A DNA stretch of 64,000 bases, from contig JAKCBQ010000001.1 of NCBI GenBank assembly GCA_021839245.1, forward strand, positions 41,032 through 105,031. Direction: 5' to 3'. The DNA is from Pseudomonadota bacterium (GTDB taxonomy: Bacteria > Pseudomonadota > Gammaproteobacteria > JAKAQQ01). Every line of letters starts with the position of its first letter. Positions within the stretch are counted from its first letter, which is position 1. The notes under the pieces are model-generated. The model searched no databases. It was not told the origin of the DNA and saw only the letters and a program-made list of their open reading frames with translations. The position numbers and the translations under genes are program-made. Of the stretch, positions 32,459-57,623 are shown one piece after another.

Positions 32459-32466
32459 AGGACCTC

Positions 32467-39330: not shown

Positions 39331-42300
39331 TCAATGAAGAACCATAGGCGATACATGAGGAATCTGTAAGTGATAGTTCCGATACGGTTCGCGATGGTAG
39401 CGAGGAATGGGATGTTCACGAAGCATGCGCAATGCGAGATGGACGGCTTCGACAAGCTGGGGGTCGATTCCTTTGCGCACAAGCGCGGGATTGTTCCAGA
39501 TTTTGACCGTGGGCGCAATCCCATGATCCTCGACGGGGAAATGCCCGTTCAGGCCCTCAATTGCTTCACGAGGTGCGGTGACTCGCCCTCCGTCCATGAG
39601 CGGTGGGTACCCCCAAATTCCAACCAGCCCACCCCATGTTCTCGTGCCCACCAAGGGCCCAAGGTGCGCCATTTTGAAAAACCACGGTAGCGCATCGCCT
39701 CCGGATCCCGAGTAGCGGTTGATGATCATGACCTTGGGGCCCTGCATGACCTGTGACGGTTCAACGTACGTTCGTCCGTAGCGGTTGACATGCAGAGCCA
39801 TCGGCTTGCGCTGCAGATACTGAATGACGTAGTCGGCGAGATCGCCCCCCGTGTTGAAACGTTCGTCGATGATCACTCCTTCCTTGTTGACCTGCGAGAA
39901 AAAATACCGATTGAAATAACGCAGTCCTGCACTATAAGTGTTGGGAAGATATACGTAACCCAACCGCCCATGGCTCATGCGATTCACCACACGAATATTG
40001 TGATCGACCCACGCCGCGAGATTGAGTGGGGCTTCATTGCTGATCGCGTGCACCACCAGATTGCGTGCTCCAGACCCGTTGGCGTTTTTGGCAACCGTCA
40101 GGAGAATATCTTTGTCGGCTAAACCTTCAAACGCCGCGTATATGCTTTTGCTCGCTCGAATCTGATGTCCGTTCACCGCGAGCACGTAATCGCCTCTGTG
40201 GATGTTCAAGCCGGGTTGAGCCAGTGGGGCGTAGAGAGACGGGTTCCACTCCCCTCCCCTCAAAATTCTGGTGATTTGATAACGTCCATGCTTGATTCGG
40301 TAACGAGCACCGAGAAGCCCGACGCCGACGTGGAGTGTATGCGGCTCCATCCCTCCACGGACAAACATATGTCCCACAGCGAGATAACTGAGCATCTCTC
40401 TGAAGAGAATGTTGAGTCCGTGGCGGCTCCCGACCCCAGGGAGATAGCGTTCAAAAATCTTGGCGACGCGGTCGATTGGCGTTCCGTCGAAGATAGGACT
40501 GTAGAAGTATGTATGCTCCATACGCCAAACGTCTTGATACATTTCCGACCAAGCCAATTGAGGTACCACTCGAACAATCATGTTCTCTGTGGGGATTGGG
40601 CGCCGAGTGAATTTGCCGATCGTCGAGTCGACATACCATTTGTGACCGACGGCGACAAGCATTCTCTTTCCGTCTCTTGCAATATGGAAAACGCGTGCCT
40701 GCGTAACCAGCGCGGTCTCTTTGCGTTTGGTGAGATTGTAACGAAGCACGGAAAAAGTGGGGAGACTGCTCAGCGGAGGGATCGGGGCGGCGCGAAGCAG
40801 GATCAGGCGGTCTCCCGGCAAGGATTCCAGTCCAACGTAATTAGCCGCTGGTACCGGGAGCGCCACCAGCCGGTCCCTTAGGTGGTCCAGGTCGATCCGT
40901 GGCTCTACGATGTTTTGTGGTTTCTTTGTGTCAACTGCGTTTTTGCTTCCCAGCCCAGGAAATTGCACGCGTGCTGGTATGGGCGATGGGGTTCTTCGCC
41001 CCAGAGCCAGAGCGTATACGCTGCGGCGGATTCTGTGGTCGAGACCGGTCATGTCCAGCGTTGTGGCAGAGAGACCCAAGTCAGTGCTTTCGGTGAAATA
41101 CAAATAACGCCCGTGAGGTGAGAAAACAGGATCACGACAATCGCTTGAACCGTGGGTGACCATGTGGTTTGTGTGTCGCCTCACAGAAAACAAAACAATC
41201 GCGTGGCGAAAGTTCGGCTCAAGCCTTGTGTAGACAATCCACCGGCCGTTAGGTGACCAACGAGCATCGAAATGCTGTGCGGTCGAATCGTAGATGTCGG
41301 TGGCAATGAGGCGTGGGTGCGAATTGCGTTTTTTGAGATTGATTTCGTAGAGATGCAAACGCACGTCCGCGTACAAGAGTCCGTTGCCGCTTGGCGACCA
41401 GCGGAGATGCCTGTAAAAATCGTATCGCGAACCCAGCGAGAAGGCCCGAACCGGACCAATGCCGTCGGCTTTACGTACATACAGGGCGTAAGCACCAGAT
41501 TGATCTGAGAAATACGCGATTCTCGACCCATGTGGTGACCAGGCCGGATCGCGAACCATCTCTCCCGCATCATGAGTCAGTGTCACCATTCCCTTGTGCC
41601 GGACGGACAGTTCGAGCAGTTTGCCGTAGGCCGTGAAGGCCACCCAATCACCGCGTGGGTCGATGGCTGAATTCTGGAGATAAGGTTGTGCCTTGACAAA
41701 GCGTGGACGGAGATCGGGAATGTTGCCCTCGAGCCGGATGGGAATTGTCCGCACACGTTGCGTGTGTAGATTGTAGAGCTCAATCCGGCCAAACCTGTCG
41801 AGGACGATAGCACCGGGTCCGCTTGCTGCGGAAAGCATGTCGAAATGGTGACGCGAAACCGGTAGTCTTTCCCGGAGGCGATGATTACGTACGTTGTAGG
41901 AGTACAGGGTAAATTGCCCGGCGGCATTGGAAAGGAAAAAGATATGGTTTCCTATCCAAAGGGGATCACGGTCTTCGGCAGGTCCGTGGGGTATACGCAC
42001 AAGAATGCGTGAAGTCCCCAGTTGTGCAATGCGGATCGTGGTCTTTTGACCGCCTTCGTAATGCTGCCAGAAGCGCTCCCACTGAAGTTCGGGAACGTAT
42101 GCGATTTCGTGATTGTGAGGAGAAAATGATCCTGCCTGGCCGGTGGGCAAAGGGAGCGGACGTGCGAATCCGCCTCGCCGAGAAACCAGAAAGAGGCGGG
42201 GAATGTAGTGTGGCCCATAACGATCGGAGCGAAACAAAACATCCCGACTGTTCGTTGTCCAACCTACGGCAATGTTGGGCGACGGATAATAGGTCAACCG

Positions 42301-42609
42301 ATGGACGTCCGCACCGTCGGCACGTGCGACGTAGACATCCGTGTTGCCCTGGTATGTTGCGGTAAAAGCAATGTACCGGCCGTTCGGGGAATAAAGCGGC
42401 CGCCTCAAATTGCCGTGCCCTGTGATCAGTGGATGAGCCACACCGCCCTGCCGCGGAACGACCCAGATCAGTCCACCGTAAGCAAAAGCTATACTCGTCG
42501 CAGAGAGCGTCGGGTCTAGGAATAGCTTAGGGAGAGCTTTCCCATATCCGATACTGAGGGAAATTGCCAGGGCCACAGGCAGGAAGAGGTTTAGAGCAAA
42601 GCGTTTCAT
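39331..42609 (-). CDS. tricorn-protease-like peptidase (S41B family) with signal peptide
   Basis: 1092 aa: a signal peptide, then long beta-propeller regions (repeated Y/W-rich blades). The C-terminal part carries a PDZ-like segment and an S41 catalytic region (INRYSGSGGDALPWFFK; GTRTWGG). Confidence 0.7.
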   Translation of the reverse strand: MKRFALNLFLPVALAISLSIGYGKALPKLFLDPTLSATSIAFAYGGLIWVVPRQGGVAHPLITGHGNLRRPLYSPNGRYIAFTATYQGNTDVYVARADGADVHRLTYYPSPNIAVGWTTNSRDVLFRSDRYGPHYIPRLFLVSRRGGFARPLPLPTGQAGSFSPHNHEIAYVPELQWERFWQHYEGGQKTTIRIAQLGTSRILVRIPHGPAEDRDPLWIGNHIFFLSNAAGQFTLYSYNVRNHRLRERLPVSRHHFDMLSAASGPGAIVLDRFGRIELYNLHTQRVRTIPIRLEGNIPDLRPRFVKAQPYLQNSAIDPRGDWVAFTAYGKLLELSVRHKGMVTLTHDAGEMVRDPAWSPHGSRIAYFSDQSGAYALYVRKADGIGPVRAFSLGSRYDFYRHLRWSPSGNGLLYADVRLHLYEINLKKRNSHPRLIATDIYDSTAQHFDARWSPNGRWIVYTRLEPNFRHAIVLFSVRRHTNHMVTHGSSDCRDPVFSPHGRYLYFTESTDLGLSATTLDMTGLDHRIRRSVYALALGRRTPSPIPARVQFPGLGSKNAVDTKKPQNIVEPRIDLDHLRDRLVALPVPAANYVGLESLPGDRLILLRAAPIPPLSSLPTFSVLRYNLTKRKETALVTQARVFHIARDGKRMLVAVGHKWYVDSTIGKFTRRPIPTENMIVRVVPQLAWSEMYQDVWRMEHTYFYSPIFDGTPIDRVAKIFERYLPGVGSRHGLNILFREMLSYLAVGHMFVRGGMEPHTLHVGVGLLGARYRIKHGRYQITRILRGGEWNPSLYAPLAQPGLNIHRGDYVLAVNGHQIRASKSIYAAFEGLADKDILLTVAKNANGSGARNLVVHAISNEAPLNLAAWVDHNIRVVNRMSHGRLGYVYLPNTYSAGLRYFNRYFFSQVNKEGVIIDERFNTGGDLADYVIQYLQRKPMALHVNRYGRTYVEPSQVMQGPKVMIINRYSGSGGDALPWFFKMAHLGPLVGTRTWGGLVGIWGYPPLMDGGRVTAPREAIEGLNGHFPVEDHGIAPTVKIWNNPALVRKGIDPQLVEAVHLALRMLREHPIPRYHREPYRNYHLQIPHVSPMVLH

Positions 42610-42743: not shown

Positions 42744-43340
42744 GTGCACCTGCGCCTTTATCTTCGCCCTCAACAATTCCTTCTTGCCGCTCTCTCTGTG
42801 CTTGCGGTGATGGCGCTCCCAGCGCACGCTTACATCATAAGAACGAAAATTCTTCAACACGCTCACTTCTCGAGCTACAAGGATTTTTATCTCATCAAGC
42901 AAGGAGCTTCTCCTCGTCTTCTCAGACTGGTTGCCCATGACTACGAGACCCTCTCATATACGAGAGTTTCCGATCCTGACCAGGCTCAGTTCTTTCTCAG
43001 AGTCAGTGTTCGTCGAAAGGTCATCAGACTGCGCGTTCCCGTCCCGTACCCCACCTACGGATACGGCTATGGCTACGCCCCTTTTGGGGGGCCGGGATGG
43101 GGACCGTTCCCGTTCTGCTGCGTCTATGGGCCCGCGTGGGGATGGGGCGTTTACGGCTATCCCGCTTACGGTCCAGCGTACCGATGGATCAGAAGAAGAG
43201 TGAGGATCATCGCAATTACGGCCGTCAGCCGCCGTGACAATGTCCCGGTATGGAGAGGGACGGCCATCACGCGTATTCGCAGCCGAACCGCCCTGTGGGC
43301 CATCGTATGGCACTTGGTGAACACCTTCCCGATCCTTTGA
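42744..43340 (+). CDS. DUF4136-family secreted protein with Tyr/Gly-rich insert
   Basis: Signal peptide (ALPAHA). The C-terminal IIAITAVSRRDNVPVWRGTA motif matches the DUF4136 signature ...LVIDLVDA..LVWRGTA. Insert YGYGYGYAPFGGPGWGPFPF...YGYPAYGPAYRW. Confidence 0.5.
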   Translation: MHLRLYLRPQQFLLAALSVLAVMALPAHAYIIRTKILQHAHFSSYKDFYLIKQGASPRLLRLVAHDYETLSYTRVSDPDQAQFFLRVSVRRKVIRLRVPVPYPTYGYGYGYAPFGGPGWGPFPFCCVYGPAWGWGVYGYPAYGPAYRWIRRRVRIIAITAVSRRDNVPVWRGTAITRIRSRTALWAIVWHLVNTFPIL

Positions 43341-43451
43341 TCGCCTCCGCCGAGTCGTCTGCAGCCGGATACCTCCGTCGCTTACGCGTGTGAGAGCATC
43401 ACTCAACGCCAACTAGTCTTATCATTTAGGGAATCGTCGCGTCTGGCGTAC

Positions 43452-44354
43452 TTGCCTATGAAAACTCTTTGTGCTCTCCGTTTCGCTGCCGCGACCGTGC
43501 TGCTGGCCTTTCTGGCATCTTGCAGTCACCCACGATACACAGTTCCGCTACACCTCGTGATGGGGATGGGTCCCAAAATCGTGGATGTGACCACAGGAAC
43601 ACACGGTCGGGTGCAAATGACGGTTCTTGGTCGTCTACCGCATTCACTGAATGTCGATGTTCTCAGCCGCGTCAGTCCGACAAAACTCCTTGTCAGCACT
43701 TATCCGAAGCATGAAATCTTTCTCTTCGATACGACTGATCATCGTTTCCGACTTGTGCATCAAGGGTGGAACGCCGTCTATTTCCCTGCGCTCAAAGCCT
43801 TCGTATTTCTGAACAGCTCAAAAGGGGAATTCATGGCGCAAGAGCTCTGGATCGCCCCGCTTACAGACCCTAAAGCTGCCAAACGTTTGGACCGTGGGCC
43901 CTTTCCCATCCCGATGCCGGTTGTCCCGATCGCGCCTAATGCTTTTGTCTACAGCAGTTGGCGGAAAACCGGCAAACAAAGGCTGTGGCTGTACAACCTG
44001 ACTTTCGGAACATATATCCCGCTGCACATCTCCGGTGTTTACCCTGAGCTTTGGCTTGCGCAAAGTCATCTTCTCCTTTGCGTAAACCTTGCCAAGCTCG
44101 ACCACCCCTACACTTTACGGTCTCTCAACGGTCAAATTGTCTCTCACCTCTCTCTGGGCAATTGGTACACTCCCGCGCTCGCCCTCCCCCATCGCCATGT
44201 CGTCCTCGTCGGGCGGCAGGCGCAGGCCATGTCATCGCCGTTTGCCGGCGACACGCTCATGGCTTACGGTCTCAAGAGCAAACGCTTACGTGTCGTTCTC
44301 CCGCATACTTTCGTTGGACTTGGAACGATTGTGAAATCGGTAGGGAGTGGGTAA
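43452..44354 (+). CDS. hypothetical lipoprotein
   Basis: Lipobox LAFLASCS after a positively charged n-region. No recognised domain. Confidence 0.45.
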   Translation: MPMKTLCALRFAAATVLLAFLASCSHPRYTVPLHLVMGMGPKIVDVTTGTHGRVQMTVLGRLPHSLNVDVLSRVSPTKLLVSTYPKHEIFLFDTTDHRFRLVHQGWNAVYFPALKAFVFLNSSKGEFMAQELWIAPLTDPKAAKRLDRGPFPIPMPVVPIAPNAFVYSSWRKTGKQRLWLYNLTFGTYIPLHISGVYPELWLAQSHLLLCVNLAKLDHPYTLRSLNGQIVSHLSLGNWYTPALALPHRHVVLVGRQAQAMSSPFAGDTLMAYGLKSKRLRVVLPHTFVGLGTIVKSVGSG

Positions 44355-44903
44355 TTGCAAAGCTTCATTTTCTATGCTCGCCGCTTGGGAGCGCTACTTT
44401 ACGATGGGCTTCTTCTTGTGGCGTTCTGGCTTCTTGCCACGTTTTGCCTCGTTCTCGCCAAAGGGCACGGAATCGTTGCGCCCGCAACCGGAACGATCGC
44501 CAAAACTCCGTACTGGTTTTTTCTGCTTCTGATCGCTTGGGCTTTTTTTTCTTGGTTCTGGTCCCACGGAGGTCAGACACTTGGTATGAGGGCCTGGAAG
44601 CTTCAACTTCGCCCCACGGTGCAGTCCGATGGCAACCTGGAGAAACATCCCTCGAGCGTGAGCTGGAGTCGTGCAAGCCGACGCTATGTAATTACGCTTG
44701 CCGTTTGGATTGTTGGAGCGGCGATGGTCATCACTCCGGCATGGGATCTCACGGCAAACATACACCTCCCTTTTGCAACACGAGTCACAGTTCTACTTTG
44801 CACGTGGGTGGCTGTCTCATTTTTTCTGTCCTTGGTGCCGATGTGGCATGGCAAGACCGTTATTGATGCCCTATCTGGCACAAGTATTGTCGCTGTTGTC
44901 TAA
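44355..44903 (+). CDS. RDD family membrane protein
   Basis: YARRLGALLYDGLLL N-terminal RDD signature and ...GQTLGMRAWKL. Three TM helices. The TTG start is the one given by the ORF track. Confidence 0.6.
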   Translation: MQSFIFYARRLGALLYDGLLLVAFWLLATFCLVLAKGHGIVAPATGTIAKTPYWFFLLLIAWAFFSWFWSHGGQTLGMRAWKLQLRPTVQSDGNLEKHPSSVSWSRASRRYVITLAVWIVGAAMVITPAWDLTANIHLPFATRVTVLLCTWVAVSFFLSLVPMWHGKTVIDALSGTSIVAVV

Positions 44904-45112: not shown

Positions 45113-45760
45113 TTACCGACTGCCCATCTTGAGAAGCATTTCGTATTGGTGCTGTATGGCGTTCAAGAGAGCAGCCACCGATCCGTGATGCAGGAATGCC
45201 TGATATTCTGCGCGCCTGATCGCCATGTCGCTTACGCCGTCAGCCACGATGTTCACAATCAGCCAGCGGTTACCGCTGTGATGCAAAACATAATCAAACT
45301 GATGTTTGTGACCGTGGCCTGGGGTAAAAAATGTTGTGTAGACGTAAGCGTTATTCCCCCTGACGAGACTACGATCGATCTTGATTTCCTGCCCGCCGTA
45401 CCCGTTGAAATTGTACGCATAGGTCACAGCCACAAGGCGTGAAAAGAGATGCATGAACCGTGTTTGTTGAGTCGGCGTGAAACTGTTCCAGTAGTGACCA
45501 AGCACAAGCCGGGAGATGAACGGCAGCCCAAACGAACTGCGCACGGCGGTTCTCATGATGGCACAGCGCTTGAGCATCCCCGCGCTTTTCCCCGCTTTCA
45601 TCGTGGCCAAGAGCGATTGGTCAAAACGACTGACAACCTTAGCCGGTGTCTTATTCGTTGTGGCCACAACGTTGGCGCGAGAAATTTGAAGGAGAGTAAA
45701 GGCTAGGGCAAGAAACAGAAAGGCATTCAGAACATATTTGCGGTGACCGATCTTGGGCAT
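45113..45760 (-). CDS. MlaC/Ttg2D-family lipid-binding periplasmic protein (HpnM-like by context)
   Basis: 215 aa with signal peptide and the MlaC-fold family pattern. It is divergent from the hpnN-like RND gene, and the HpnM assignment rests on that context. Confidence 0.6.
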   Translation of the reverse strand: MPKIGHRKYVLNAFLFLALAFTLLQISRANVVATTNKTPAKVVSRFDQSLLATMKAGKSAGMLKRCAIMRTAVRSSFGLPFISRLVLGHYWNSFTPTQQTRFMHLFSRLVAVTYAYNFNGYGGQEIKIDRSLVRGNNAYVYTTFFTPGHGHKHQFDYVLHHSGNRWLIVNIVADGVSDMAIRRAEYQAFLHHGSVAALLNAIQHQYEMLLKMGSR

Positions 45761-45906
45761 GGTTACTCCACCTGCGGAGGAGCAGGTTTGGCTATGTGAG
45801 TAAGCGGTAGGTCATTTGTGAGGGTCGTGTGATGGATTATAGCTGGATCGCAGTTGCGTTGATATGAAGAATCTGGACCACCTTCCATAACCATTGGTGT
45901 AACAAA

Positions 45907-45937
45907 TTGTTATAGCCATAAAACATTCGCCTATAAT
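45907..45937 (+). promoter_or_regulatory. candidate sigma70-type promoter (TTGTTA, 19-nt spacer, TATAAT) upstream of the hpnN-like gene
   Basis: Read from the sequence in the AT-rich divergent intergenic region. The spacer is 2 nt longer than optimal. Confidence 0.3.
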
Positions 45938-46061
45938 ATTCAGCGGGTCACAATTCAGACTGAAGTCACGGTTGGGGATGTGCACGCAAAGATATTACTC
46001 ACCGTTACATCTCTGTTTGAGTCTTATCTCTTGCAGGCACACCCTGGCTTGATGTGACGCG

Positions 46062-48740
46062 ATGACCACAGCGAACACACCGAAAGAATCGGGGCGGTGG
46101 ACTCGCCGGATGCTCGTGGGAACCGTCATGTTCTCACGTCGTCACGCGTGGTCGATTACGGCACTGGCCACGGTCGCGGCTCTCGCCAGTCTCATTTTTA
46201 TCATCTCGAACTTCAAAATTGATACCAGCGTATCCCGCCTTCTCTTCCGAAGGGGCGACTTCACGCACGTCAACAAAGAACTTGTTCATGATTTCCCCTC
46301 CCTCGGGCGGCGGATCATCGTTGAGGTACACAGCGACGATGCATCGACGACAGCGCAGGCTACCCGTGACATTGTCCAGATCCTCAAACTCCATCCTCAT
46401 TCCTATCCATTCGTTTACGCCCCGACTTCCGAGCCCCTATTTAGGCGAGATGGTCTTTTGTACCTTTCGACCCCTCGTCTTCGACAGGTTTTGACACGCC
46501 TCACGAAGGCGGAACCCCTCCTGGGATCTCTGCAAGCTCACCCTAACGTACGGGGCTACGCGCATCTTCTTGGGGAGATTATCCGCAACCTCCGAGAGCT
46601 TCCCACCCAAGAAAGACATATGGTTGCCTCAATTATTGATAAGGCGACCTTCGCAATGAATCGGAAGGAACGGAGTTCACCCGGCGCACGGACTCCCCTG
46701 GATTTTGAGAGCACACTTCTTGGATCGTCATCACGGTTTGCGCAAGCGCATACGAGAACAAGTGTCGTCATCGTCTCTCTACCACGCACCGACAACACCA
46801 GCGACCGAATGCATGAAGCCGTTTCTCGCCTGAAATCCCTTCTTCACAATGACGCCCAACTTTTGCGCACGCGTGCACACTGGGCGTACACGGGTTCTGT
46901 CATTCTCAGTCTTGACCAGCTACGGGCGGTGACAAGCGGGACGGATCTGGCAACGCTGCTTTCCATAGTCTTAAGTATCGTGATCTTGATCATAGGGCTA
47001 CGCAGCATCAGACTTCTCCTGCCGATTTTGATCTGTTTGCTGATCGGCCTGATCGTGACGGCGGCGTTTGCCCTCATGGCTCTTGGACCCCTTAACCTGA
47101 TCACTGTAGCGTTTGGCGTCCTCTTTATTGGACTAGGAGTCGACTTTAGCATCCAGTTCTGTATTCGTCTGCAGGAAGAACTTTCCAAGCAAGCCAACGC
47201 CGAGATGGCGTTTAGCGCCACCGCCTACCGGATCGGCTTTGCGCTTTTTCTGGCCGCTCTCGCAGCCGCCAGCTGTTTCTATGCCGTTATCCCCTCCGGA
47301 TATAGCGGCATTCGCGATCTCGGCATCATCGCGGGCACCGGTGCACTCATTGCGCTTGTCTTAAACCTTACTCTACTGCCCGCTCTTTTGACAGTGTTCC
47401 GTGCGGGCCGCATCACAATTGCTCGCCCCCCTGTTCCGTTCGCCAAACTGCCGGTTAAAAAACTCGCACGCCCCATTTTTCTGTTCTCGCTCGTCATGCT
47501 GGCCATCTCGGTCGTCGTCATCCCGCGGCTCGAGTTCGATTTTGACCTAGCGCATCTCGAAAATCACAATACCTCTGCCTACCGTGTTCTTCATCAACTG
47601 GAACGCAAACTGTCTTTCTCTCCGTACACCCTCGAAGCGGTAGCACCCAATCTGGCACGGGCGAACCGCTGGGCGGTCACGCTCCGTCACCTCACATCTG
47701 TCGGTCGTGTCCTGACGCTCAGCAGTTATATTCCTGAGCATCAGAAAACAAAGATGGCGATGATATCGAATGCCGCGTTGCTTTATCCACCGCCGTTTGC
47801 TTCATCCCCTCGGGCCTCATTGGCTCGCGATCCACAACGAGACTGCCGTGTTTTGCGAAGCTTGGGTCGCGAGGCCCATCAACAAAGTCGAACTGCGCCT
47901 CTCTCGATGCGGGAGGTGCTCGTCCGCTTTGCGAATGCCACAAACTCGGCTTTCGGAAGCCGCTGTGCTCTCCCGGCATTGGAATCTTTAAATCGGCACG
48001 CAGTTCGGCCGTTACTTGAACTGAGCCGTGAAGTGGCCCGTCTGCTTAATCCGGTGCCCGTCACAATCCGTTCGCTTCCGGCAACGATCCGTGAGGATTA
48101 TCTCGCCTCCAACGGAAAGGCTCGTGTCGAAATCTTTTCGCGACTCGATCTTCACAAATCCCGAAATCTTCAGAAGTTTGTCTCTCAAGTCACACGAGTC
48201 ATCCCTGATGTCGGTGGAACGCCTGTTCTGTTTGTTCGTGGGGGAAAAATCGTTACATCAGCTTTTCGCGAAGCCAGCCTTCTGGCTTTTCTTTTCATCA
48301 TCATCGTTGTCAGCGTTGTTCTACGAAGCTTACGCGATCTTTCTCTCACCATTGTTCCTCTTGCTCTCAGTGTCAGCTTGACACTGACCACGCTGTCTCT
48401 CCTAGGGATACAGTTCAACATCGCCAACATCATCGTGATACCTCTCTCCATCGGGTTGAGCGTGGCTTTCGGTATCTACATGATTCTGCGCTGGAAAAAC
48501 AATCACTACGATATTCGGCAGGTGCTACGCTCCAGTGTCCCGGAAGGAATTCTTGTTAGCGGCATGACGACGCTCCTTGTGTTTGGAACGCTGGTTTTGA
48601 CACCGAGTCCGGGCCTTTTTAGCCTGGGCATCACACTGGTGGTCGCGCTTTTCTGGACACTCGTCAGTAGCCTTATCATCCTTCCGTCAATGCTTTATTT
48701 GGTCGAAGCCTCGATCCACCATCGGGGAACACAAACATGA
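46062..48740 (+). CDS. hpnN: hopanoid-associated RND (MMPL-type) transporter HpnN-like
   Basis: 892 aa with 12 TM helices arranged as two 6-TM bundles and two large periplasmic loops. Length and architecture match HpnN. MlaC-like and HpnL-like genes are adjacent. Confidence 0.65.
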   Translation: MTTANTPKESGRWTRRMLVGTVMFSRRHAWSITALATVAALASLIFIISNFKIDTSVSRLLFRRGDFTHVNKELVHDFPSLGRRIIVEVHSDDASTTAQATRDIVQILKLHPHSYPFVYAPTSEPLFRRDGLLYLSTPRLRQVLTRLTKAEPLLGSLQAHPNVRGYAHLLGEIIRNLRELPTQERHMVASIIDKATFAMNRKERSSPGARTPLDFESTLLGSSSRFAQAHTRTSVVIVSLPRTDNTSDRMHEAVSRLKSLLHNDAQLLRTRAHWAYTGSVILSLDQLRAVTSGTDLATLLSIVLSIVILIIGLRSIRLLLPILICLLIGLIVTAAFALMALGPLNLITVAFGVLFIGLGVDFSIQFCIRLQEELSKQANAEMAFSATAYRIGFALFLAALAAASCFYAVIPSGYSGIRDLGIIAGTGALIALVLNLTLLPALLTVFRAGRITIARPPVPFAKLPVKKLARPIFLFSLVMLAISVVVIPRLEFDFDLAHLENHNTSAYRVLHQLERKLSFSPYTLEAVAPNLARANRWAVTLRHLTSVGRVLTLSSYIPEHQKTKMAMISNAALLYPPPFASSPRASLARDPQRDCRVLRSLGREAHQQSRTAPLSMREVLVRFANATNSAFGSRCALPALESLNRHAVRPLLELSREVARLLNPVPVTIRSLPATIREDYLASNGKARVEIFSRLDLHKSRNLQKFVSQVTRVIPDVGGTPVLFVRGGKIVTSAFREASLLAFLFIIIVVSVVLRSLRDLSLTIVPLALSVSLTLTTLSLLGIQFNIANIIVIPLSIGLSVAFGIYMILRWKNNHYDIRQVLRSSVPEGILVSGMTTLLVFGTLVLTPSPGLFSLGITLVVALFWTLVSSLIILPSMLYLVEASIHHRGTQT

Positions 48741-49813
48741 ACGGGGCGTCTCGCTCACAAAAAACGACGAGCATCCGTTCACGTTTCGGCCTTTTGATTC
48801 AGGTTCTGGGCGTTGCGGGCGGCTTTGCACTTACGGGTTTTTTGATTACTCGTATCCATATCACCGCACTTGAGTACGCCCTCTCCGAGATTGGATACGG
48901 CATCGTTTTTCTCGTCTTACTGCATCTCGTCTCGATCCTCTTGGATTCTCAGGGTTGGTACATTGCACTTCACAGGCTACGCGCGCGGCTCGGAAGAGGC
49001 CTTGTGGCCAGTGCTGCGTGCCGACGTAATGCGGTACAAACCCTCGTGCCGCTAGGAGCCAGCGGCTTTGTCTCCGGCTATCGTACGTTGCGCCACCATC
49101 ATGTTCAGCCTCATACCGCTCTCTCGAGCCTCATTTTTGAGACTACGATCACGACAGCCGGAGAGCTTTTCCTGTTGCTTACATCGGCCGTGATGGTTTT
49201 CAGGGGTGCGTCTCCGACGGGACGCTCCACCTTCCTTGATTACGCTCCCATTGCCGGGTTCCTTGCCGCCGTTCTGGCCGCTGCACTTGTCCTCCAGCTT
49301 CGCGGGAAGGTCTTCGATACTCTTGGCCGTGGCTTAGACAAATTGGGTCCGAGCACCCGCCGCTCGTCCTGGAGCCGTTTCCCTCTGCGTGTCAAACATG
49401 GGCTCTGGCGTCTTTACCGGTCACCGGCCGCTTGGGGCTGGGGCTTTCTTTGGCAGTTGGCCAGTCTTCTTACCGGCGCCGGCGCTGTCTGGCTGGCTTT
49501 CTTCCTGATTCACGCGCAGGTCTCGTTCATGGTTGCGCTCTTCTTTTTGTGTCTCGCACGAGCGTTACGTTCCTTTGGGTTTTTGATCCCTTCAGCCTGG
49601 GGTCTTCAGGAAGGACTCTTTATCCTGCTCGCCCCTTTGGCGGCTGTCTCGCCCACTGCGGGTCTGACGGTGTCGCTCATCCTTCGCGTTCGTGATTTTT
49701 TCTTTGCTTTTGCGACCGTTGCGGTCGGACGCTTCGCTTGGGGTTGGCATTCCGAGAAAAACTCCCCCCCACCGCTGCCGGAGGTCGCCCGGGGCTCCCT
49801 GGTGGACGATTGA
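48737..49813 (+). CDS. hpnL: HpnL-like integral membrane protein (UPF0104 / lysyl-PG-synthase TM-region family)
   Basis: Polytopic membrane protein of UPF0104 type. Its start overlaps the hpnN stop (ATGA). Confidence 0.5.
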   Translation: MNGASRSQKTTSIRSRFGLLIQVLGVAGGFALTGFLITRIHITALEYALSEIGYGIVFLVLLHLVSILLDSQGWYIALHRLRARLGRGLVASAACRRNAVQTLVPLGASGFVSGYRTLRHHHVQPHTALSSLIFETTITTAGELFLLLTSAVMVFRGASPTGRSTFLDYAPIAGFLAAVLAAALVLQLRGKVFDTLGRGLDKLGPSTRRSSWSRFPLRVKHGLWRLYRSPAAWGWGFLWQLASLLTGAGAVWLAFFLIHAQVSFMVALFFLCLARALRSFGFLIPSAWGLQEGLFILLAPLAAVSPTAGLTVSLILRVRDFFFAFATVAVGRFAWGWHSEKNSPPPLPEVARGSLVDD

Positions 49814-49817
49814 TCTC

Positions 49818-51089
49818 ATGAGCGCACGCTACGATCTCAGCTATCAGCTCCGCCTCCTTCGCGCACGGGCATTGCGCCGTTCGTTCCGTGCAACCACTCC
49901 GATTTTCGATACGCTGCGGTCTTCGTTCTCGACGTCCGTCTATGACGCGGAAGCCCTGATCCTCAAAGCACAGAACGAGACAGGTCTTCGAGATTTTTTT
50001 ACCCCCCCTCCGAAAGAAGCTCTCTCCGCGCTCCTGTCCTCGATACGCGCAAACAACACCTTGAACACTATCGGGCGGACGGCCCTGCGCGTGGACGTTC
50101 TGCGTCTTTTGTCCAACCATCTTCGTCTGGTCGAATTGTGCCGGCAAAACCCCAACCTTGCACGTAAGCCGATCTTTTCACCCGTGTTTATCATGGGATT
50201 GCCGCGAACTGCAAGCACCTTTCTTCACTCCATGTTGATCCTGGACCCCCGGCACCGTGCGCCCACGATTGCGGAGGTGACCTACCCCTACTTTGCGCTC
50301 GCCTCCCCTCGCGGCAGCAACATGCGCATGCGCCGGGCTCTCCACTGGCTGGACGTTCTCGAGCCCGACTTCCAAAACGCGTACCCGTCGCACCCCAAAT
50401 CACCCCAAGAATGTTCCGAGATTCTCAGTAACACCATGGAAAGCCTGCGCTTTGACAGCACTTACGACGTCCCTGAGTATCTGGCGTGGATGGATCAGCG
50501 CACACACACCGGCGCCTACGAGTTTCATCGTCGCTTTCTTCAATCGCTCGACCATGTCTCATCCGGGGAAAAACGTTGGGTCCTGAAATGCCCGGACCAC
50601 GTGTTCTATTACCAGGATCTCCTCCGGGTTTATCCCGACGCGCGCATCATCGTCACCCACAGGGATCCCGGTCGAGTGCTGCCTTCTGTGGCTTCTCTGA
50701 CAATGATCCTCCAGGGCTTGTTCAGCGATCGTGTCGAGCCCGCCCGTGTTGCTCAGCGGGTTTTGGATCGTTGGATCCTTGGAGCGCAACGAGTGATCGA
50801 AATCGCCGACTCCGAGCACGCACGTTCGCAGAGGGTCCTACATGTTTTTTACGATGAGCTCGTCCGTTTTCCCCTTCCGATGCTGGAGAAGATTTACCGG
50901 TTCCTCGAAACACCGTTTCATGGAACGACGGCATCCAAGGTTCGTGAACATCTTGAGCGTTCTGAAGTCGGCAGTTATCGGGCCAACCGCTACAGCGAGC
51001 AATTCCAAAAGCTCCTCCCCGCTGCGTTCGTGCGCGAGCACTTCCGTGATTACCTTGCCCGCTTTGATCTGCGGGAAGGAGAAAAGTGA
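49818..51089 (+). CDS. sulfotransferase family protein (PAPS-dependent, Sulfotransfer_3-like)
   Basis: 5'-PSB-like motif FIMGLPRTASTFLHSML and 3'-PB-like motif IIVTHRDPGRVLPS. It starts 4 nt after the hpnL stop. I set the start at MSARYDLSY; the ORF track begins 42 codons earlier, inside hpnL. Confidence 0.65.
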   Translation: MSARYDLSYQLRLLRARALRRSFRATTPIFDTLRSSFSTSVYDAEALILKAQNETGLRDFFTPPPKEALSALLSSIRANNTLNTIGRTALRVDVLRLLSNHLRLVELCRQNPNLARKPIFSPVFIMGLPRTASTFLHSMLILDPRHRAPTIAEVTYPYFALASPRGSNMRMRRALHWLDVLEPDFQNAYPSHPKSPQECSEILSNTMESLRFDSTYDVPEYLAWMDQRTHTGAYEFHRRFLQSLDHVSSGEKRWVLKCPDHVFYYQDLLRVYPDARIIVTHRDPGRVLPSVASLTMILQGLFSDRVEPARVAQRVLDRWILGAQRVIEIADSEHARSQRVLHVFYDELVRFPLPMLEKIYRFLETPFHGTTASKVREHLERSEVGSYRANRYSEQFQKLLPAAFVREHFRDYLARFDLREGEK

Positions 51090-51125
51090 GGGTTTAGCAG
51101 GAAGCTCGGGTTCCACTCAACATAC

Positions 51126-51455
51126 TCATGGGCCACGCAGTTTGATCCGACCCGTGAGCACGTCCCCGTACATCCGCCAGTCGCTGACAAAGCTCCAGAA
51201 AGGCGCACCAAAAGTTGCCGGTCGATTGTGCTCGAACACGTAATGACCGATCCACGCGCATCCATAACCAAGGATGGGGGCAAGAATGAGGAGCCACAGC
51301 GAAAGAATAAGCGAGAGAACAATGTCGACGAGCACGAGGCTCGAGCCAACAACATGAAAAAGGCGGCATCCATATGTTGAGTGTTGCTTGAGATAATAAG
51401 AATAAAACTCTGAATACGATGAGAATTCTTTCATAGATTTGCACTCCAAAGCCAC
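51126..51455 (-). CDS. DUF962 (Mpo1-like) small membrane protein
   Basis: MKEFSSYSEFYSYYLKQH...GHYVFEHNRPATF matches the DUF962 / YGL010w-like family. Confidence 0.6.
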   Translation of the reverse strand: MALECKSMKEFSSYSEFYSYYLKQHSTYGCRLFHVVGSSLVLVDIVLSLILSLWLLILAPILGYGCAWIGHYVFEHNRPATFGAPFWSFVSDWRMYGDVLTGRIKLRGP

Positions 51456-51792: not shown

Positions 51793-52380
51793 ATGCTCAG
51801 ACTCCGACGTCTTACCGACTACGGCACCGTGATCCTCGCACAACTCGCGGCGATGCGAGTCGGATGGATGACTGTCTCCTCGATTGCTCAGGCCACGAGG
51901 CTTCCGGAGGCTACCGTGGGTAAGCTTCTCAAGCAATTAACTCATCAAGGACTTGTGGTCTCACAGCGCGGAACCCACGGGGGGTATCGGCTCTCACGCG
52001 ATCCGACGGACATCTCAGCGCTCGAGATCTTGGAGTCCCTCGAGGGCAGCATGGCGGTCACAGAATGCAGTCTCGGGAACCTCGGCTGCAACCACGCCGG
52101 CTACTGCCGTGTCCGAACACCGTGGCAAACGATCAACGAAGCCATTCGTCGCACTCTCGCGGGCATCACGCTCGCCGAACTCGCGGCTGCCCTGCCCATT
52201 CCCGCGCTCTACATGAGCCGCTCCGTCCCCCGCTCCAAGAATGCTCTCCCCGGCGTCGTTCAGGGCGAATCGACGGCTCACGAACCCGAGCAATCTCGTT
52301 CCGCCACCGCCCCATCGCGCCATCGCCCTGCCCTTTCGTCCGGATCACAAGACAGCAACCGTGAACACGTCCACCGATGA
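51793..52380 (+). CDS. Rrf2-family transcriptional regulator (IscR/SufR-like, putative [2Fe-2S] sensor)
   Basis: N-terminal w[19 protein letters not shown]. Cys triad [14 protein letters not shown] (C-x5-C-x5-C) as in IscR. It sits immediately upstream of sufB. Confidence 0.75.
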
Positions 52381-53812
52381 GCTGACGCCGCTTCTCCAGC
52401 GCGGCTACGAAGCGGGTTTCGTCACCGATATTGAGACGGATCAGTCCCCACCGGGACTGTCCGAGGAGGTGATCACCCGTCTTTCCGAGACCAAAAAAGA
52501 GCCACGTTATCTTCTCGACTGGCGTCTCCAAGCCTACCGTGCCTGGCTCGAAATGAAGGAACCCCATTGGTCGATTGCCGCCTACCCTCCGATCGACTAT
52601 CAGGCCGTCAGTTACTACGCCGCCCCGCGAAGTGTCGACCCCAAACGGCCCAAATCTCTCGACGAGGTCGACCCTCGCCTTCTCGAAACGTACCGCAAGC
52701 TCGGCGTCCCCTTGCATGAGCAGGCGGCCCTCGCGGGGGTAGCCATGGACGCCGTCTTCGACAGCGTCTCCGTCGCCACAACGTTTCGGGAAACGCTGAA
52801 AAAAGCGGGAGTGATCTTTTGCCCCTTTTCAGAAGCGGCCGTCGAATATCCCGAGCTTGTGCGCCAATACCTGGGGAGCGTCGTTCCTTACCGCGACAAT
52901 TTCTTTGCCGCGCTCAACTCGGCGGTCTTTAGCGACGGATCTTTCGTCTACGTTCCCCCGGGTGTGCGCTGCCCCATGGAACTCTCCACCTATTTTCGGA
53001 TCAACGCCGCCAAGACGGGACAGTTCGAGAGAACGTTGATCATTGCCGATCGTGGCTCCTACGTCAGCTATCTTGAGGGCTGCACAGCCCCGATGCGTGA
53101 CGAAAACCAGCTCCATGCCGCGGTGGTTGAACTCGTGGCCCTGGAAGGCGCCGAAATTCGCTATGCCACCGTACAGAACTGGTACCCCGGCGACGAGGAG
53201 GGACGCGGCGGAATTTACAACTTCGTTACGAAGCGCGGCGATTGCCGAGGAGCCCGATCCAAGATCTCATGGACCCAAGTCGAAACGGGCTCGGCGATCA
53301 CATGGAAGTATCCGAGTTGCATCCTGCGCGGCGACGAGTCGGTCGGGGAATTCTACTCCGTCGCACTCGCCCGCCACCGCCAGCAGGCGGACACAGGAAC
53401 AAAGATGATCCACATGGGGCGACGTACACGAAGCGTCGTGATTTCGAAAGGAATCTCGGCGGGTCATGGCCGTAACGCCTACCGCGGTATGGTGCGGATG
53501 GCCCCCACCGCTCTCCACGCCCACAACTACACGCGCTGTGACTCGCTCCTGATCGGCCCCCACTGCCAAGCGTACACGATCCCGGTTCTCGAGGTGCGTC
53601 ATCCCTCGGCGCGTGTCGAACATGAGGCGACGGCATCCAAGATTGCCGACGATCAGATTTTTTACTGTCGGCAGCGTGGGCTGGACGAGGAAACAGCGGT
53701 CCACCTGCTCGTCAACGGGTTCTGCCGCGAAGTCTTCCAAAAGCTGCCGCTCGAATTCGCCGTTGAAGCCCAAAAACTGATCGCCGTCAGCCTGGAAGGA
53801 GCCGTCGGATGA
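52361..53812 (+). CDS. sufB: Fe-S cluster assembly scaffold SufB
   Basis: The N-terminus aligns with SufB from ...[29 protein letters not shown]. An in-frame GTG at 52361 is the likely start. The ORF track begins at 52241, inside the regulator gene. Confidence 0.85.
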
Positions 53813-54576
53813 ACAATGAACAGCCTCTCCTGGATGTCCGAAATCTTTGGATCAAGGCCCAGGATCAATTCATCCTGAACGGCCTCGATCTCCGAATCGG
53901 GCTCGGCGAAGTGCATGCCATCATGGGCCCAAACGGCTCCGGTAAGAGCACTCTCGTCCAGAGCCTCGCGGGGCATCCGGGCTACACCATCGAGAAGGGA
54001 GAGATCTCGTTTGACGGCGAGGATCTCTTGACGTTGACGCCGGAGGAACGGGCCCGGCGCGGGCTTTTCCTGGCCTTCCAGTATCCCGTCGAAATTGCCG
54101 GTCTCGGCAACGGCTACTTCCTGAAGGCGGCGGTCAACGCCGTCCGTGAAGCCCGGGGCCAGACCCCCTATGACGCCGTCGAATTCCTCAAGGTCTTCCG
54201 TGAGCTCGCTCCGCTTGTCGGTCTCGGGCAGGATTTTCTCGAACGGGGCGTCAACGCCGGCTTTTCCGGAGGGGAAAAGAAACGCAACGAAATTCTCCAG
54301 ATGCTCCTCCTCGAACCTCGCCTCACGCTCCTCGACGAAACGGATTCGGGGCTCGATGTCGATGCTCTCAAGCTGGTTGCCCGCGGGGTCAACGCCACCC
54401 GCTCCAAAGACCGGAGCATCGTCCTCGTCACCCACTACCAACGTTTGCTCGATTACATTGATCCCGATGTTGTCCACATCCTGATCAAAGGGCGGATCGT
54501 GCGCTCGGGAACACGGGAACTCGCGCGTGAGATCGAGCGGGAGGGTTACGAGCCCCTTCTCACGGCCATGGCTTGA
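53809..54576 (+). CDS. sufC: Fe-S cluster assembly ATPase SufC
   Basis: Walker [13 protein letters not shown] signature and the SufC-specific [16 protein letters not shown] overlap with sufB. Confidence 0.9.
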
Positions 54577-54583
54577 AACGTTG

Positions 54584-55894
54584 ATGTCCTCCCCCGTCGA
54601 ATCCTTCCGCCCGCGTGCACTGTCCGGATCCTCGCCGACACGGATTCGCAGTTGGGACGATGCCCGCACGCACGCGGAAAAAGCTCTCGAGGTCCACGCT
54701 CCACCCGACAGGCACGACGAACGCTGGCGCTACACGCGGGCACAGGATTTTCTGCCTCCTCTTGCGAGATCCAACGAAACGACGGCATCGGCGGAGAGGA
54801 AGCTTGGGACAGAACTCACGACTCCGGCCCCGTCAGAAGAGATTCTTCTTCTCGAAGACGGGAAAATCGGTGATCCCGAGGCCCGCCGCCGAGACGGACT
54901 TCGCCACGGTGTGACCCTGCGAACGATGCGTGAGGCTTGGACTGAAGACCCGGCGCTCATGAAACGCATCGTTCTCTCCTCGCCTATCCGCGACCGCTAC
55001 TTTGTCTGGTGGAATACCGCTCACCTCGACGACGGTTACGTGATCGTGGTCCCCCGAGAGCGTCCCCATGACCGCCCGCTACAGATCCTCTGGCAAAGTC
55101 CGAATGCGGTTGTCGTCCGGCGTCTTCTGCTCGTTCTCGAACCCGGAGCACGGCTGGACCTCGTGGAAGGCGAGGCCGCTTACCCCAACCAGCTCCGGCA
55201 TCTCGTCCGCGATATTCATTTAGACCGTGAAGCCACACTTCACCACGCGCTCCTCGACGCACCCGGGGTCCACGAAAACTGGCTCTGGACGACGGGTGTC
55301 GTCGTTGATGAAGGGGCCGCGTATCACGCCCTTGGTGTGCACGCGGGCGCCCGCAAGGCCCGTCACGAGATCTGCGTCGACCTGAGCGGGTCGTGGGCAC
55401 AAGCGACTCTTGATGCGGCGGTTCTGCTTCCTTCAAAACATGTTTTCGATCTTCAAACGGAGATCGTCCATCGGGCCGACGCCACAGAAAGCCGCCAGCG
55501 CGTTCACTCCGCAACCGCCGCTCGAGCGACGGCCGTCTACGGTGGCACGATTGTGGTCGAATCAGCCACCAAGGGTGTCGTCGCTCACCAGCAGAGCCGG
55601 GGCCTGCTGCTTGATCCTGCCTCGGACATCAACAGCCGACCCGAGCTTCATATTCGCAGCGACGACGTCCTCTGCACGCACGGCGCCAGCATCGGGGCGA
55701 TCGATCCAGAGGGGTTGTTCTACCTCCAAAGCCGCGGTCTCAACGCCTCTCAGGCCCGCGCCCTTCTTCTCAGGGCGTTTGCCCTACGTGTGCTCGAGAC
55801 GTTTCCCGCCGCGGCGTCTGAGGTCCTTCGGACAGCTCTGGCGAAGCGACTGGAGGTTCTCGTGCGCCTTCTTGTCCCCGAGGTTGCCCTGTGA
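54584..55894 (+). CDS. sufD: Fe-S cluster assembly protein SufD
   Basis: ~437 aa with SufB/SufD family C-terminal beta-helix. Start set at MSSPVESF, 5 nt after the sufC stop. Confidence 0.8.
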   Translation: MSSPVESFRPRALSGSSPTRIRSWDDARTHAEKALEVHAPPDRHDERWRYTRAQDFLPPLARSNETTASAERKLGTELTTPAPSEEILLLEDGKIGDPEARRRDGLRHGVTLRTMREAWTEDPALMKRIVLSSPIRDRYFVWWNTAHLDDGYVIVVPRERPHDRPLQILWQSPNAVVVRRLLLVLEPGARLDLVEGEAAYPNQLRHLVRDIHLDREATLHHALLDAPGVHENWLWTTGVVVDEGAAYHALGVHAGARKARHEICVDLSGSWAQATLDAAVLLPSKHVFDLQTEIVHRADATESRQRVHSATAARATAVYGGTIVVESATKGVVAHQQSRGLLLDPASDINSRPELHIRSDDVLCTHGASIGAIDPEGLFYLQSRGLNASQARALLLRAFALRVLETFPAAASEVLRTALAKRLEVLVRLLVPEVAL

Positions 55895-57150: not shown

Positions 57151-57617
57151 ATCCGATGCTTTCGCTTTATCAGGAAATCATTCTGGACCACAACCGTCAT
57201 CCGCGAAATTTCGGACATCTCGATCCTTGCACGCATCAGGCGCAGGGCTTCAACCCGCTCTGCGGAGACAAGGTGTTTCTTACGCTCAAGGTGGGCGATG
57301 AGGGCGATGAGATTCGTGAAATCGCGTTCGAAGGCACAGGATGCGCCATCTCCGTCGCTTCGGCCTCCCTGATGACCGAAGCTCTTCGCAACCTCCCTGT
57401 CGAAGATGCCCGAAGGCTCATCGAGGCGGTTCATGAGCTCATCGTCGGGGGAACGGTCCCCGCGCTTCTCGAGGAAGAACGTTACGCCCGCCTCAAGGCT
57501 CTCGCGGGCGTTCACGAATTTCCAGCCCGTGTCAAGTGTGCCACCCTGGCCTGGCAGACCCTGCGTGCGGCGCTCGACCGGAAGACGCAGGAAATCAGCT
57601 CCGATCCCCGCTCCTGA
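57147..57617 (+). CDS. sufU: SufU-type sulfur acceptor (NifU-like N-terminal domain)
   Basis: NPLCGD and EGTGCAISVASAS motifs with the SufU-specific insertion. ATGA overlap with sufS. Confidence 0.85.
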   Translation: MNPMLSLYQEIILDHNRHPRNFGHLDPCTHQAQGFNPLCGDKVFLTLKVGDEGDEIREIAFEGTGCAISVASASLMTEALRNLPVEDARRLIEAVHELIVGGTVPALLEEERYARLKALAGVHEFPARVKCATLAWQTLRAALDRKTQEISSDPRS

Positions 57618-57623
57618 CCCGCG

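Follow-up and report, generated by a model that had tools for sequence, protein, structure and literature searches.

The stretch of DNA analysed here, 64,000 nucleotides of contig JAKCBQ010000001.1 from a gammaproteobacterial metagenome-assembled genome (MAG), hereafter the window, carries a sulfotransferase gene, ST, directly behind relatives of the hopanoid transport genes hpnN and hpnL and close to a relative of hpnM. The hpnM-like gene (45113-45760, minus strand, 215 aa) is divergent from the other three and encodes a putative MlaC-fold periplasmic lipid carrier recognised by both Pfam and NCBIfam. A divergent intergenic spacer of 301 nt (45761-46061), presumed to contain the promoters of hpnM and of hpnN1-hpnL1-ST, separates it from hpnN1 (46062-48740, plus strand, 892 aa), which codes for an HpnN-like inner-membrane lipid transporter of the resistance-nodulation-division (RND)/MMPL type with an MMPL domain, a diverged second copy. 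On the same strand follow hpnL1 (48737-49813, 358 aa), coding for an HpnL-like membrane protein that resembles the flippase of MprF (PF03706, LPG_synthase_TM), and ST itself (49818-51089, 423 aa), coding for a soluble sulfotransferase of the Stf1/Stf9 class (PF13469, Sulfotransfer_3) of the type that uses 3'-phosphoadenosine-5'-phosphosulfate (PAPS). These four genes, a DUF962 gene behind ST and the junctions between them all lie where a first-pass annotation of the window had placed them.

The TGA stop codon of hpnN1 (48738-48740) overlaps the ATG of hpnL1 (48737) as ATGA, through which hpnL1 is predicted to be translationally coupled to hpnN1. The stop codon of hpnL1 (49811-49813) is followed by tctc and then by the ATG of ST at 49818, i.e. 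by a gap of 4 nt. A terminator at this point, proposed earlier as a finding that would separate ST from the operon, is disfavoured because the gap leaves no room for one and because terminator-like sites in the scan stood at chance level (11 found, 8.0 +/- 3.5 expected), with no signal between hpnL1 and ST. No Rfam family, riboswitch candidates included, matched the window or its hpnM/hpnN1 spacer, and an internal terminator or riboswitch was rejected on these two results. Judging by gene order and coupling, hpnN1, hpnL1 and ST are probably co-transcribed. A consensus scan called no promoter in 45761-46061. A perfect TATAAT does occur in the spacer, closely preceded by a perfect palindrome, TAACAA-A-TTGTTA (45895-45945 for the two together). 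These elements are retained in the 90%-related locus L003, at a distance where conservation is uninformative, and they could be an operator and a promoter.

ST matches PF13469 at 4.2e-36 (125.7 bits against a gathering score of 27), has no match in NCBIfam and shows no transmembrane or hydrophobic segment in its hydrophobicity profile. Relatives align with it from residue 1, which supports the start codon. The 5'-phosphosulfate-binding motif (5'-PSB) GLPRTASTF at residues 127-135 and the 3'-phosphate-binding motif (3'-PB) HRDP at residues 281-284, both recognised in the first pass (the latter as RDP), are present, and their key residues are among those invariant in 22 relatives: G127, L128, P129, R130, E198, K257, H261, H281, R282, P284 and S290. 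Three of these, E198, K257 and H261, are candidate catalytic residues. The Arg/Thr of the 5'-PSB, the Arg/Ser of the 3'-PB, the Glu of PQEC and the KxPxH motif align with the corresponding positions of 2z6v and 2zq5, the nearest solved structures by sequence (~3e-32, 21-25% identity). An AlphaFold2 (AF2) model built on an alignment of 22 sequences reached a predicted local distance difference test score (pLDDT) of 90.3, and its top Foldseek matches were the same two structures, STF9 of Mycobacterium avium (2z6v, template modelling score TMt 0.85) and STF1 of M. tuberculosis (2zq5, TMt 0.81). Far weaker matches came next: tyrosylprotein sulfotransferases, the sulfotransferase domains of CurM and olefin synthases and retinol dehydratase, with LGS1 lower down. 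The invariance of the PAPS-binding and candidate catalytic residues, together with the match of the model to STF1 and STF9, suggests that ST is an active, PAPS-dependent member of the mycobacterial Stf class. The wider ST family comprises 884 representatives at 50% clustering (E <= 1e-30).

The three partners of ST were compared with curated NCBIfam profiles, whose cut-offs are 751.85 bits for HpnN (TIGR03480), 1100 for the HpnN equivalog (NF052374), 160.1 for HpnM (TIGR03481), 195.65 for HpnL (TIGR03476) and 225.05 for HpnH (TIGR03470). HpnM of the window is a borderline pass, with 160.7 bits in TIGR03481, and matches Pfam MlaC at 2.2e-32; its N-terminus, MPKIGHRKYVLNAFLFLALAFTLLQISRA, contains a hydrophobic stretch at residues 8-34 that is read as a predicted Sec signal peptide. 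For HpnN1 the best family is HpnN (667.5 bits, against 144.5 for BstA and 129.4 for HAE3). Its best solved structure is likewise an HpnN chain, 6wu0_B (also 5khn), at E ~1e-93 over residues 18-877, followed at a distance by Dispatched at 2e-7. These HpnN structures we take to be those of Burkholderia multivorans. In the structure-sequence alignment the fourth transmembrane segment carries the motif GLGVDF, identical to that of the solved chain, in which the Asp is presumably the proton relay, and the topology of two blocks of hydrophobic segments with large loops between them is the RND pattern. The proposed RND identity of the protein is thereby borne out, HpnN being clearly the best match both as family and as structure.

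HpnL1 matches PF03706 at 2.1e-18 over residues 23-325 and has about eight hydrophobic segments. An HpnL 89% identical to it occurs in a related MAG that is labelled Gammaproteobacteria by NCBI. A word-indexed homologue search returned only 8 relatives, so the AF2 model of HpnL1 (pLDDT 79) had to be built on a shallow alignment of nine sequences. Its top three PDB matches in Foldseek are all MprF membrane domains (TMq 0.56-0.60, probability 1.00), and the next match falls to 0.21; the predicted fold is that of the MprF flippase domain, the sole convincing match. An aminoacyl-phosphatidylglycerol synthase domain was not found by Pfam, and HpnL1 is not an MprF family member. By analogy, the ST-HpnL1 module would work like MprF without belonging to it.

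The window ends inside a second hopanoid locus. Exact look-up of two window proteins located an ENA contig, k141_463251 (201.7 kb; L092), which shows 100% identity to the window across the 11 kb that were compared and carries the exact GHMP kinase of the window. Past the window end it contains a minus-strand operon in the order shc (squalene-hopene cyclase, SHC), an hpnG-like gene, the diphosphomevalonate decarboxylase gene mvaD, hpnN2, hpnL2, a fusion of 3-hydroxy-3-methylglutaryl-CoA (HMG-CoA) reductase and mevalonate kinase, the isopentenyl diphosphate (IPP) isomerase gene idi, and hpnH; SHC Pfam domains were found further upstream in this shc-hpnH operon. Its last gene, hpnH, coding for an adenosyl-hopene transferase, reaches into the window with its 3' end (63662-64000, minus strand). 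The fragment, suspected in the first pass to be hpnH-like, is indeed that: it matches DUF3463 at 5.3e-25 and positions 267-318, the C-terminal end, of the TIGR03470 profile. HpnN2 (798.9 bits), HpnL2 (257.8 bits) and the complete HpnH (538.1 bits) all lie above their cut-offs. HpnN1 and HpnN2 are 36% identical and HpnL1 and HpnL2 28% identical. Because the contig also holds the canonical hpnN2-hpnL2 within the shc-hpnH operon, hpnN1-hpnL1 is, on these sequence comparisons, a diverged, paralogous second pair and not the canonical one of the organism: the canonical pair lies just beyond the window, and HpnN1 and HpnL1 are below the cut-offs. The genes shc, hpnG, hpnH and hpnN2-hpnL2 are 12-25 kb from the ST module, the gap to the operon being 12.5 kb, and the hpnM beside ST is the only hpnM in the sequence examined.

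This second locus has a feature of its own. Genes of the mevalonate pathway are interleaved with the hopanoid genes (L092 11080-21083 and window 62583-63665), the portion in the window being a phosphomevalonate-kinase-like GHMP kinase gene at the edge of the cluster (62583-63665, plus strand; TIGR01220 90 bits, below cut-off). Mevalonate genes within a hopanoid operon appear to be an unusual, dedicated precursor supply for hopanoids.

In order to see whether orthologues of ST are linked to hpn genes in other genomes, as had been suggested for a check, we scanned one genome per species, which yielded 80 loci whose ST relatives are 35-96% identical; exact-protein look-ups added others, for a total of 83. 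Neighbours within 7 kb of ST were called with HpnM, HpnN and HpnL profiles built from the loci. An HpnM-, HpnN- or HpnL-like gene is near ST in 56 of the 83 loci, nearly always directly adjacent, and the linkage holds in 38 of the 57 loci that are flanked by 5 kb or more at each end. When ST proteins are clustered by single linkage at 60% identity, 9 of 12 clusters have a linked member. The linkage takes 12 distinct arrangements. With S for ST, M, N and L for hpnM-, hpnN- and hpnL-like genes, and > and < for the strand, the commonest is M<S> (24 loci, divergent, with ~250-300 nt between the genes), followed by S>N< (9 loci, mostly with ~100 nt between), S>L> (7 loci), S>N<M< (4 loci), the window type M<N>L>S> (3 loci), L>S> (2 loci) and L>M<S> (2 loci); N<M<S>L<, S>L<M<, S>L<N<M<, S>L>N> and N>L>S>M< were each seen at one locus. 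In a neighbour-joining tree of ST these arrangements follow the clades, and the linkage is spread across the whole tree. An unbiased clustering of the flanking open reading frames (ORFs) ranked HpnM first (37 loci), HpnN level with a short-chain dehydrogenase/reductase (SDR) family (19 each), cytochrome P450 next (18) and HpnL fifth (17).

Hosts of ST include Rhodopila globiformis DSM 161 (L020, with an hpnM/ST pair), Acidisphaera rubrifaciens HS-AP3, MAGs of many Acetobacteraceae and of further Alphaproteobacteria, Phenylobacterium, Rhizomicrobium, Stellaceae, one MAG each of Chromatiaceae and Binataceae, and other Gammaproteobacteria; linked loci occur in Chromatiaceae, other Gammaproteobacteria and Binataceae as well as in Alphaproteobacteria. 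Among these relatives the neighbours of ST that were tested score 898-1040 bits (HpnN), 170-215 (HpnM) and 224-260 (HpnL), above the curated cut-offs, and the HpnN of Phenylobacterium passes even the equivalog profile NF052374 (1115.7 against 1100). Scores below cut-off were seen in the clades nearest the window, i.e. for N (678.2) and L (142.1) of L001 and for L of L083 and L004 (188-190). For HpnL the TIGR03476 scores are graded, from 131.6 in HpnL1 through 188-190 in L083/L004 to 257.6 in L085 and 257.8 in HpnL2. Locus L085 has the N>L>S> order of the window, with the same ATGA overlap and 4-nt gap, and its N and L are above the cut-offs; its HpnN is 43% identical to HpnN1 and 34-39% identical to canonical HpnN. 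This locus appears to bridge the diverged copies of the window and the canonical HpnN and HpnL families.

ST and hpnL are also coupled. ATGA overlaps from ST into hpnL were found in L035, L045, L049 and L059, and gaps of 3-4 nt from hpnL to ST in the window, L001 and L085; the coupling is therefore present in both gene orders. In locus L089 (8001-10289) the two are one gene: the encoded protein P0127 (762 aa) has an N-terminal ST, 37% identical to that of the window, and a C-terminal HpnL that scores 229.5 bits in TIGR03476 (cut-off 195.65), and neither hpnN nor hpnM is nearby. Such ST-HpnL fusions of 762-766 aa (P0127, P0266, P0267 and P0268) come from at least three independent assemblies in ENA and JGI data with 90-100% identity; counterparts of P0127 were seen in another ENA contig (94% identity) and in JGI data (90% identity), along with one fragment. 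Because it recurs in separate assemblies, the fusion is taken to be a real gene of one lineage and not an assembly error. ST and HpnL are, from all appearances, the tightest pair of the module, and the fusions lead one to expect that the two proteins touch directly.

Other genes, too, stand beside ST relatives. Cytochrome P450 genes lie directly next to ST in 18 loci (e.g. L020 12669-14042, L025, L029), and Rieske/LigXa_C genes in L024 (8460-9761) and L087 (8544-9824). A soluble ORF of 311-342 aa, c88, occurs in L081 (6067-7011), L005 (11225-12253), L015 (10750-11778) and L054 (16473-17408); it overlaps the ST stop codon as ATGA in L081, directly follows ST in L005 and, in L054, adjoins an HpnL gene. 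Neither Pfam nor NCBIfam gives a match for it. It was considered as an HpnL relative and rejected as unrelated to HpnL, and it contains two E-x-x-H motifs (EEGRH, QEETRH) that suggest a candidate diiron oxygenase. Given these recurrent oxygenases, it is a possibility that the acceptor is hydroxylated first in some lineages. In Rhodopila-type loci (L020 6826-8634 and 14067-15320; L025; L016 12352-13371) two TauD-family genes, a luciferase-like monooxygenase gene, LysR regulator genes and an NMT1/sulfonate-binding-type gene flank the hpnM/ST pair, a set that looks like sulfur scavenging or sulfate-ester turnover. In L085 (11703-18820) N>L>S> is followed on the same strand by genes for a GT1 glycosyltransferase, a lysine-aminomutase-like radical SAM protein, two D-Ala-D-Ala-ligase-like ATP-grasp proteins, an acetyltransferase/deacetylase fusion and an acetyltransferase, which may be a further tailoring cluster. 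Finally, L086, a locus with no L, M or N, has a small Sulfotransfer_1 gene (8992-9825, 277 aa) directly upstream of the ST relative and an AsmA-family gene close by.

We propose that hpnN1-hpnL1-ST and the divergent hpnM form a dedicated module that sulfates, flips and exports an extended hopanoid, a reading to which we give about even chances. From the observations above we infer an enzyme activity, an acceptor, and flipping and export steps, as follows. The acceptor would be bacteriohopanetetrol (BHT) or a close derivative, by association. At the cytoplasmic face of the inner membrane the soluble Stf1/Stf9-type ST would use PAPS to add a sulfate ester to a side-chain hydroxyl. Since the sulfated product would be permanently anionic and could not cross the bilayer unaided, the MprF-flippase-like HpnL1 would move it to the periplasmic leaflet, where the RND pump HpnN1 would extract it and the MlaC-like HpnM carry it towards the outer membrane. 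The pair hpnN2-hpnL2 would serve ordinary hopanoids, and hpnN1-hpnL1 would be a duplicate specialised for charged cargo. A hopanoid is the favoured acceptor because of the family identity of L, M and N, the nearby shc-hpnH operon and the published distribution of these genes, which places hpnL and hpnM only in Alphaproteobacteria that carry hpnH, and hpnN in every predicted producer (PMC12583986). Of the central idea of the first-pass annotation, the tie of ST to hpnN, hpnL and hpnM stands, through linkage and fusion, and the sulfated lipid or hopanoid product is kept as a prediction. Extended beyond the window, the proposal would be that several proteobacterial classes make sulfated hopanoids by means of a conserved ST and HpnL sulfate-and-flip unit, with HpnL as the flippase for head-group-modified hopanoids; this generalisation is tentative, its chances being somewhat short of even.

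Several results weigh against a sulfated hopanoid. HpnN1 falls under the cut-offs of both profiles (667.5 bits against 751.85 in TIGR03480, 510.6 against 1100 in NF052374), as does HpnL1 (131.6 against 195.65), so that their cargo could have changed; and an adenosine-5'-phosphosulfate (APS) kinase motif, as a sign of PAPS supply, was not found in the window. No L, M or N gene is near ST in 27 of the 83 loci, and, with most loci drawn from MAGs that are related to one another, the counts cannot be taken as independent events. The motif scan found no SHC motif within 10 kb of ST in any other fetched locus, and for shc or hpnH beside ST it found only the hpnH of the window; the hopanoid link thus rests on the family-level annotation of L, M and N. 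Sulfated hopanoids are without a report in the searchable literature, and a survey that included R. globiformis DSM 161 listed five bacteriohopanepolyol derivatives and mentioned no sulfated one, the detectability of such a compound being unchecked (PMC12583986).

The same sequence of sulfation, flipping and export could act on a different membrane lipid (glycolipids, ornithine-type lipids, hydroxylated quinones or carotenoids and polyprenols are examples), with N1-L1 neofunctionalised. The sub-cut-off scores of N1 and L1 and their 36% and 28% identity to the canonical pair on the contig would fit this, as would the P450, Rieske, diiron-like and glycosyltransferase genes that recur near ST relatives and the fact that shc never adjoins ST in the other loci; moreover, stf3 makes a sulfated menaquinone, S881 (PMC3141025, PMC7404182). 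We nevertheless consider a non-hopanoid acceptor unlikely, as the L, M and N of other lineages pass the hopanoid-family cut-offs beside ST, one HpnN at equivalog level, L085 keeps the N-L-ST order with N and L above cut-off, and the module of the window is only 12.5 kb from the hopanoid operon. Sulfation might instead be a transient activation, in which sulfate is the leaving group when the hopanoid side chain undergoes elimination, cyclisation or substitution, and no stable sulfated lipid accumulates. CurM, the olefin-synthase domains, retinol dehydratase and LGS1, all among the fold matches of ST, work in this way, and sulfated hopanoids would then have gone unreported even from R. globiformis; but these fold matches are weak (TM 0.3-0.5, compared with 0.8 for Stf1/Stf9), and coupling or fusion of ST with a flippase-like protein fits a charged, transported product better, which makes this account improbable.

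That the acceptor is a protein, a peptide or a soluble metabolite (e.g. tyrosine sulfation of the RaxST or tyrosylprotein sulfotransferase, TPST, kind), with the hpnL/M/N linkage reflecting shared regulation, seems very improbable. In fold, protein-tyrosine sulfotransferases come second to Stf1/Stf9, but their matches are weak (TMq ~0.35); the TauD, luciferase-like monooxygenase, LysR and sulfonate-binding-type genes of Rhodopila-type loci hint at sulfur metabolism, but no recurrent candidate peptide gene lies near ST, and the ST-HpnL fusion and the coupling in both gene orders speak for joint action on a membrane substrate. Historical accident without function is strongly disfavoured, the least credible account of all: many loci are from related Acetobacteraceae MAGs and some of the synteny will be inherited, but the 12 arrangements extend over three or more groups at phylum or class level, HpnM, HpnN (jointly with SDR) and HpnL rank first, second and fifth among conserved non-shadow neighbours, and ATGA coupling and gene fusion tie ST to HpnL.

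Convergent with ST lies the gene for the small DUF962/Mpo1-like membrane protein (51126-51434, minus strand), whose longest ORF spans 51126-51455; the more likely start is the ATG at 51434, for a protein of 102 aa, the length called in L090 and L091; the homologue in L002 has 101 aa. Its product matches Pfam Mpo1-like (PF06127) at 4.4e-34 and nothing in NCBIfam. The gene is beside ST only in L002 and L003, and is missing from L001 and from all 79 further loci of the 82 compared; L001 (ST 70% identical) has different genes at this place. Because the linkage is confined to L002 and L003, the closest relatives, DUF962 was rejected as a module member and is regarded as a local neighbour: the gene had been correctly described as present and convergent, but its association with the module does not hold. 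Ahead of hpnM in window coordinates (42744-44903) lie three genes, for a DUF4136 lipoprotein, for a 300-aa product that has no annotation and for a membrane protein of the RDD family, and L001 keeps their order. Downstream of ST (51793-58178) an Rrf2-family regulator precedes a complete suf Fe-S assembly operon (sufB, sufC, sufD, sufS, a NifU-like gene and an FeS_assembly_P gene), ordinary housekeeping genes. A tricorn-protease-like gene of 1092 aa is upstream of the hpn locus (39331-42609). The Rrf2-suf genes, the tricorn-like protease and the DUF4136/RDD trio are local synteny only. Further upstream (29704-35399) are subunits of a Mrp-antiporter/group-4-hydrogenase-like complex (Proton_antipo_M, Complex1_49kDa/NiFeSe, Complex1_30kDa).

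Many carriers of ST look like inhabitants of acid habitats: Rhodopila and Acidisphaera are acidophiles, and there are MAGs whose names point to acidic or mine-affected sites. Even at very low pH a sulfate ester keeps its charge, and a link to acid adaptation is plausible. If the proposal is true, the module would make a new hopanoid head group and an undescribed lipid class, an acid-stable anionic hopanoid of interest for membrane biology and for the biomarker record; such compounds could escape routine hopanoid workflows, which would affect the reading of hopane biomarkers. It would also give HpnL its first function and, in some genomes, a second HpnN/HpnL route for a charged derivative. A conserved and sometimes fused enzyme partner turns the role of HpnL into a concrete, testable one, namely flipping of a modified hopanoid, and cultured carriers of ST exist, e.g. 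R. globiformis DSM 161, in which the hypothesis is directly testable.

HpnN has reportedly been characterised in Rhodopseudomonas palustris and Burkholderia multivorans. HpnM and HpnL are its predicted partners (PMC12324291, PMC12583986). A preprint of 2025 on the microsynteny of hopanoid loci mentions hpnL, hpnM, hpnS and hpnT, describes the role of HpnL as unclear and has no word that starts with sulf-; a 2025 survey of 54 Alphaproteobacteria that included R. globiformis found the functions of hpnL and hpnM elusive and no further candidate genes near the cluster (PMC12583986). A sulfotransferase linked to hopanoids, HpnN or bacteriohopane gave nothing relevant in the searchable literature, in agreement with the earlier remark that no sulfated hopanoid pathway is described. 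Within that literature the association of ST with hpnL/M/N, the ST-HpnL fusion and the predicted product appear to be undescribed. The components are all of known kinds, i.e. PAPS sulfotransfer, an MprF-like flippase, an RND exporter and an MlaC-like carrier.

Compared with the known HpnN/HpnM/HpnL transport system, the locus has the same three families, with HpnN as the best family and structure match of HpnN1, an HpnM that passes its cut-off and a hopanoid operon on the contig. It differs in that the operon includes a sulfotransferase and that N1/L1 are a diverged, sub-cut-off second pair. With mycobacterial Stf1 (2zq5) and Stf9 (2z6v) ST shares the fold class (TM ~0.8) and the PAPS motifs, whereas it is only 21-25% identical, is proteobacterial and has hopanoid L/M/N as partners. 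Stf1 to Stf3 are paralogues, and mycobacterial Stf3 sulfates hydroxylated menaquinone, an example of this enzyme class acting on an isoprenoid membrane lipid. In M. tuberculosis cyp128 and stf3 together make sulfated menaquinone S881 (PMC7404182, PMC3141025), and the P450 genes near ST recall cyp128 near stf3.

Cytoplasmic sulfation followed by an RND/MMPL-type exporter is also the logic of sulfolipid-1 of M. tuberculosis, in which Stf0 sulfates the lipid in the cytoplasm and the RND/MMPL-type MmpL8 exports it; there, however, the acceptor is a trehalose glycolipid, Stf0 belongs to another family, and flippase-like and MlaC-like partners are absent. BT_0416 of Bacteroides and eukaryotic sterol sulfotransferases likewise sulfate a polycyclic, triterpenoid-type lipid, but they are unrelated SULT-type enzymes that act on host sterols and have no dedicated export genes. 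A parallel to the ST/HpnL pair in design is MprF. As lysyl-phosphatidylglycerol synthase and flippase in one, it produces a charged lipid in the inner leaflet, which its PF03706-type domain then flips (PMC8131360). Like it, ST/HpnL pairs a PF03706 membrane domain with a cytoplasmic head-group enzyme, and the ST-HpnL fusion of relatives mirrors the two-domain design, although the enzyme precedes the membrane domain in the fusion, and the window has them as two genes. In place of an aminoacyl-phosphatidylglycerol synthase there is a sulfotransferase, whose product would be anionic instead of cationic.

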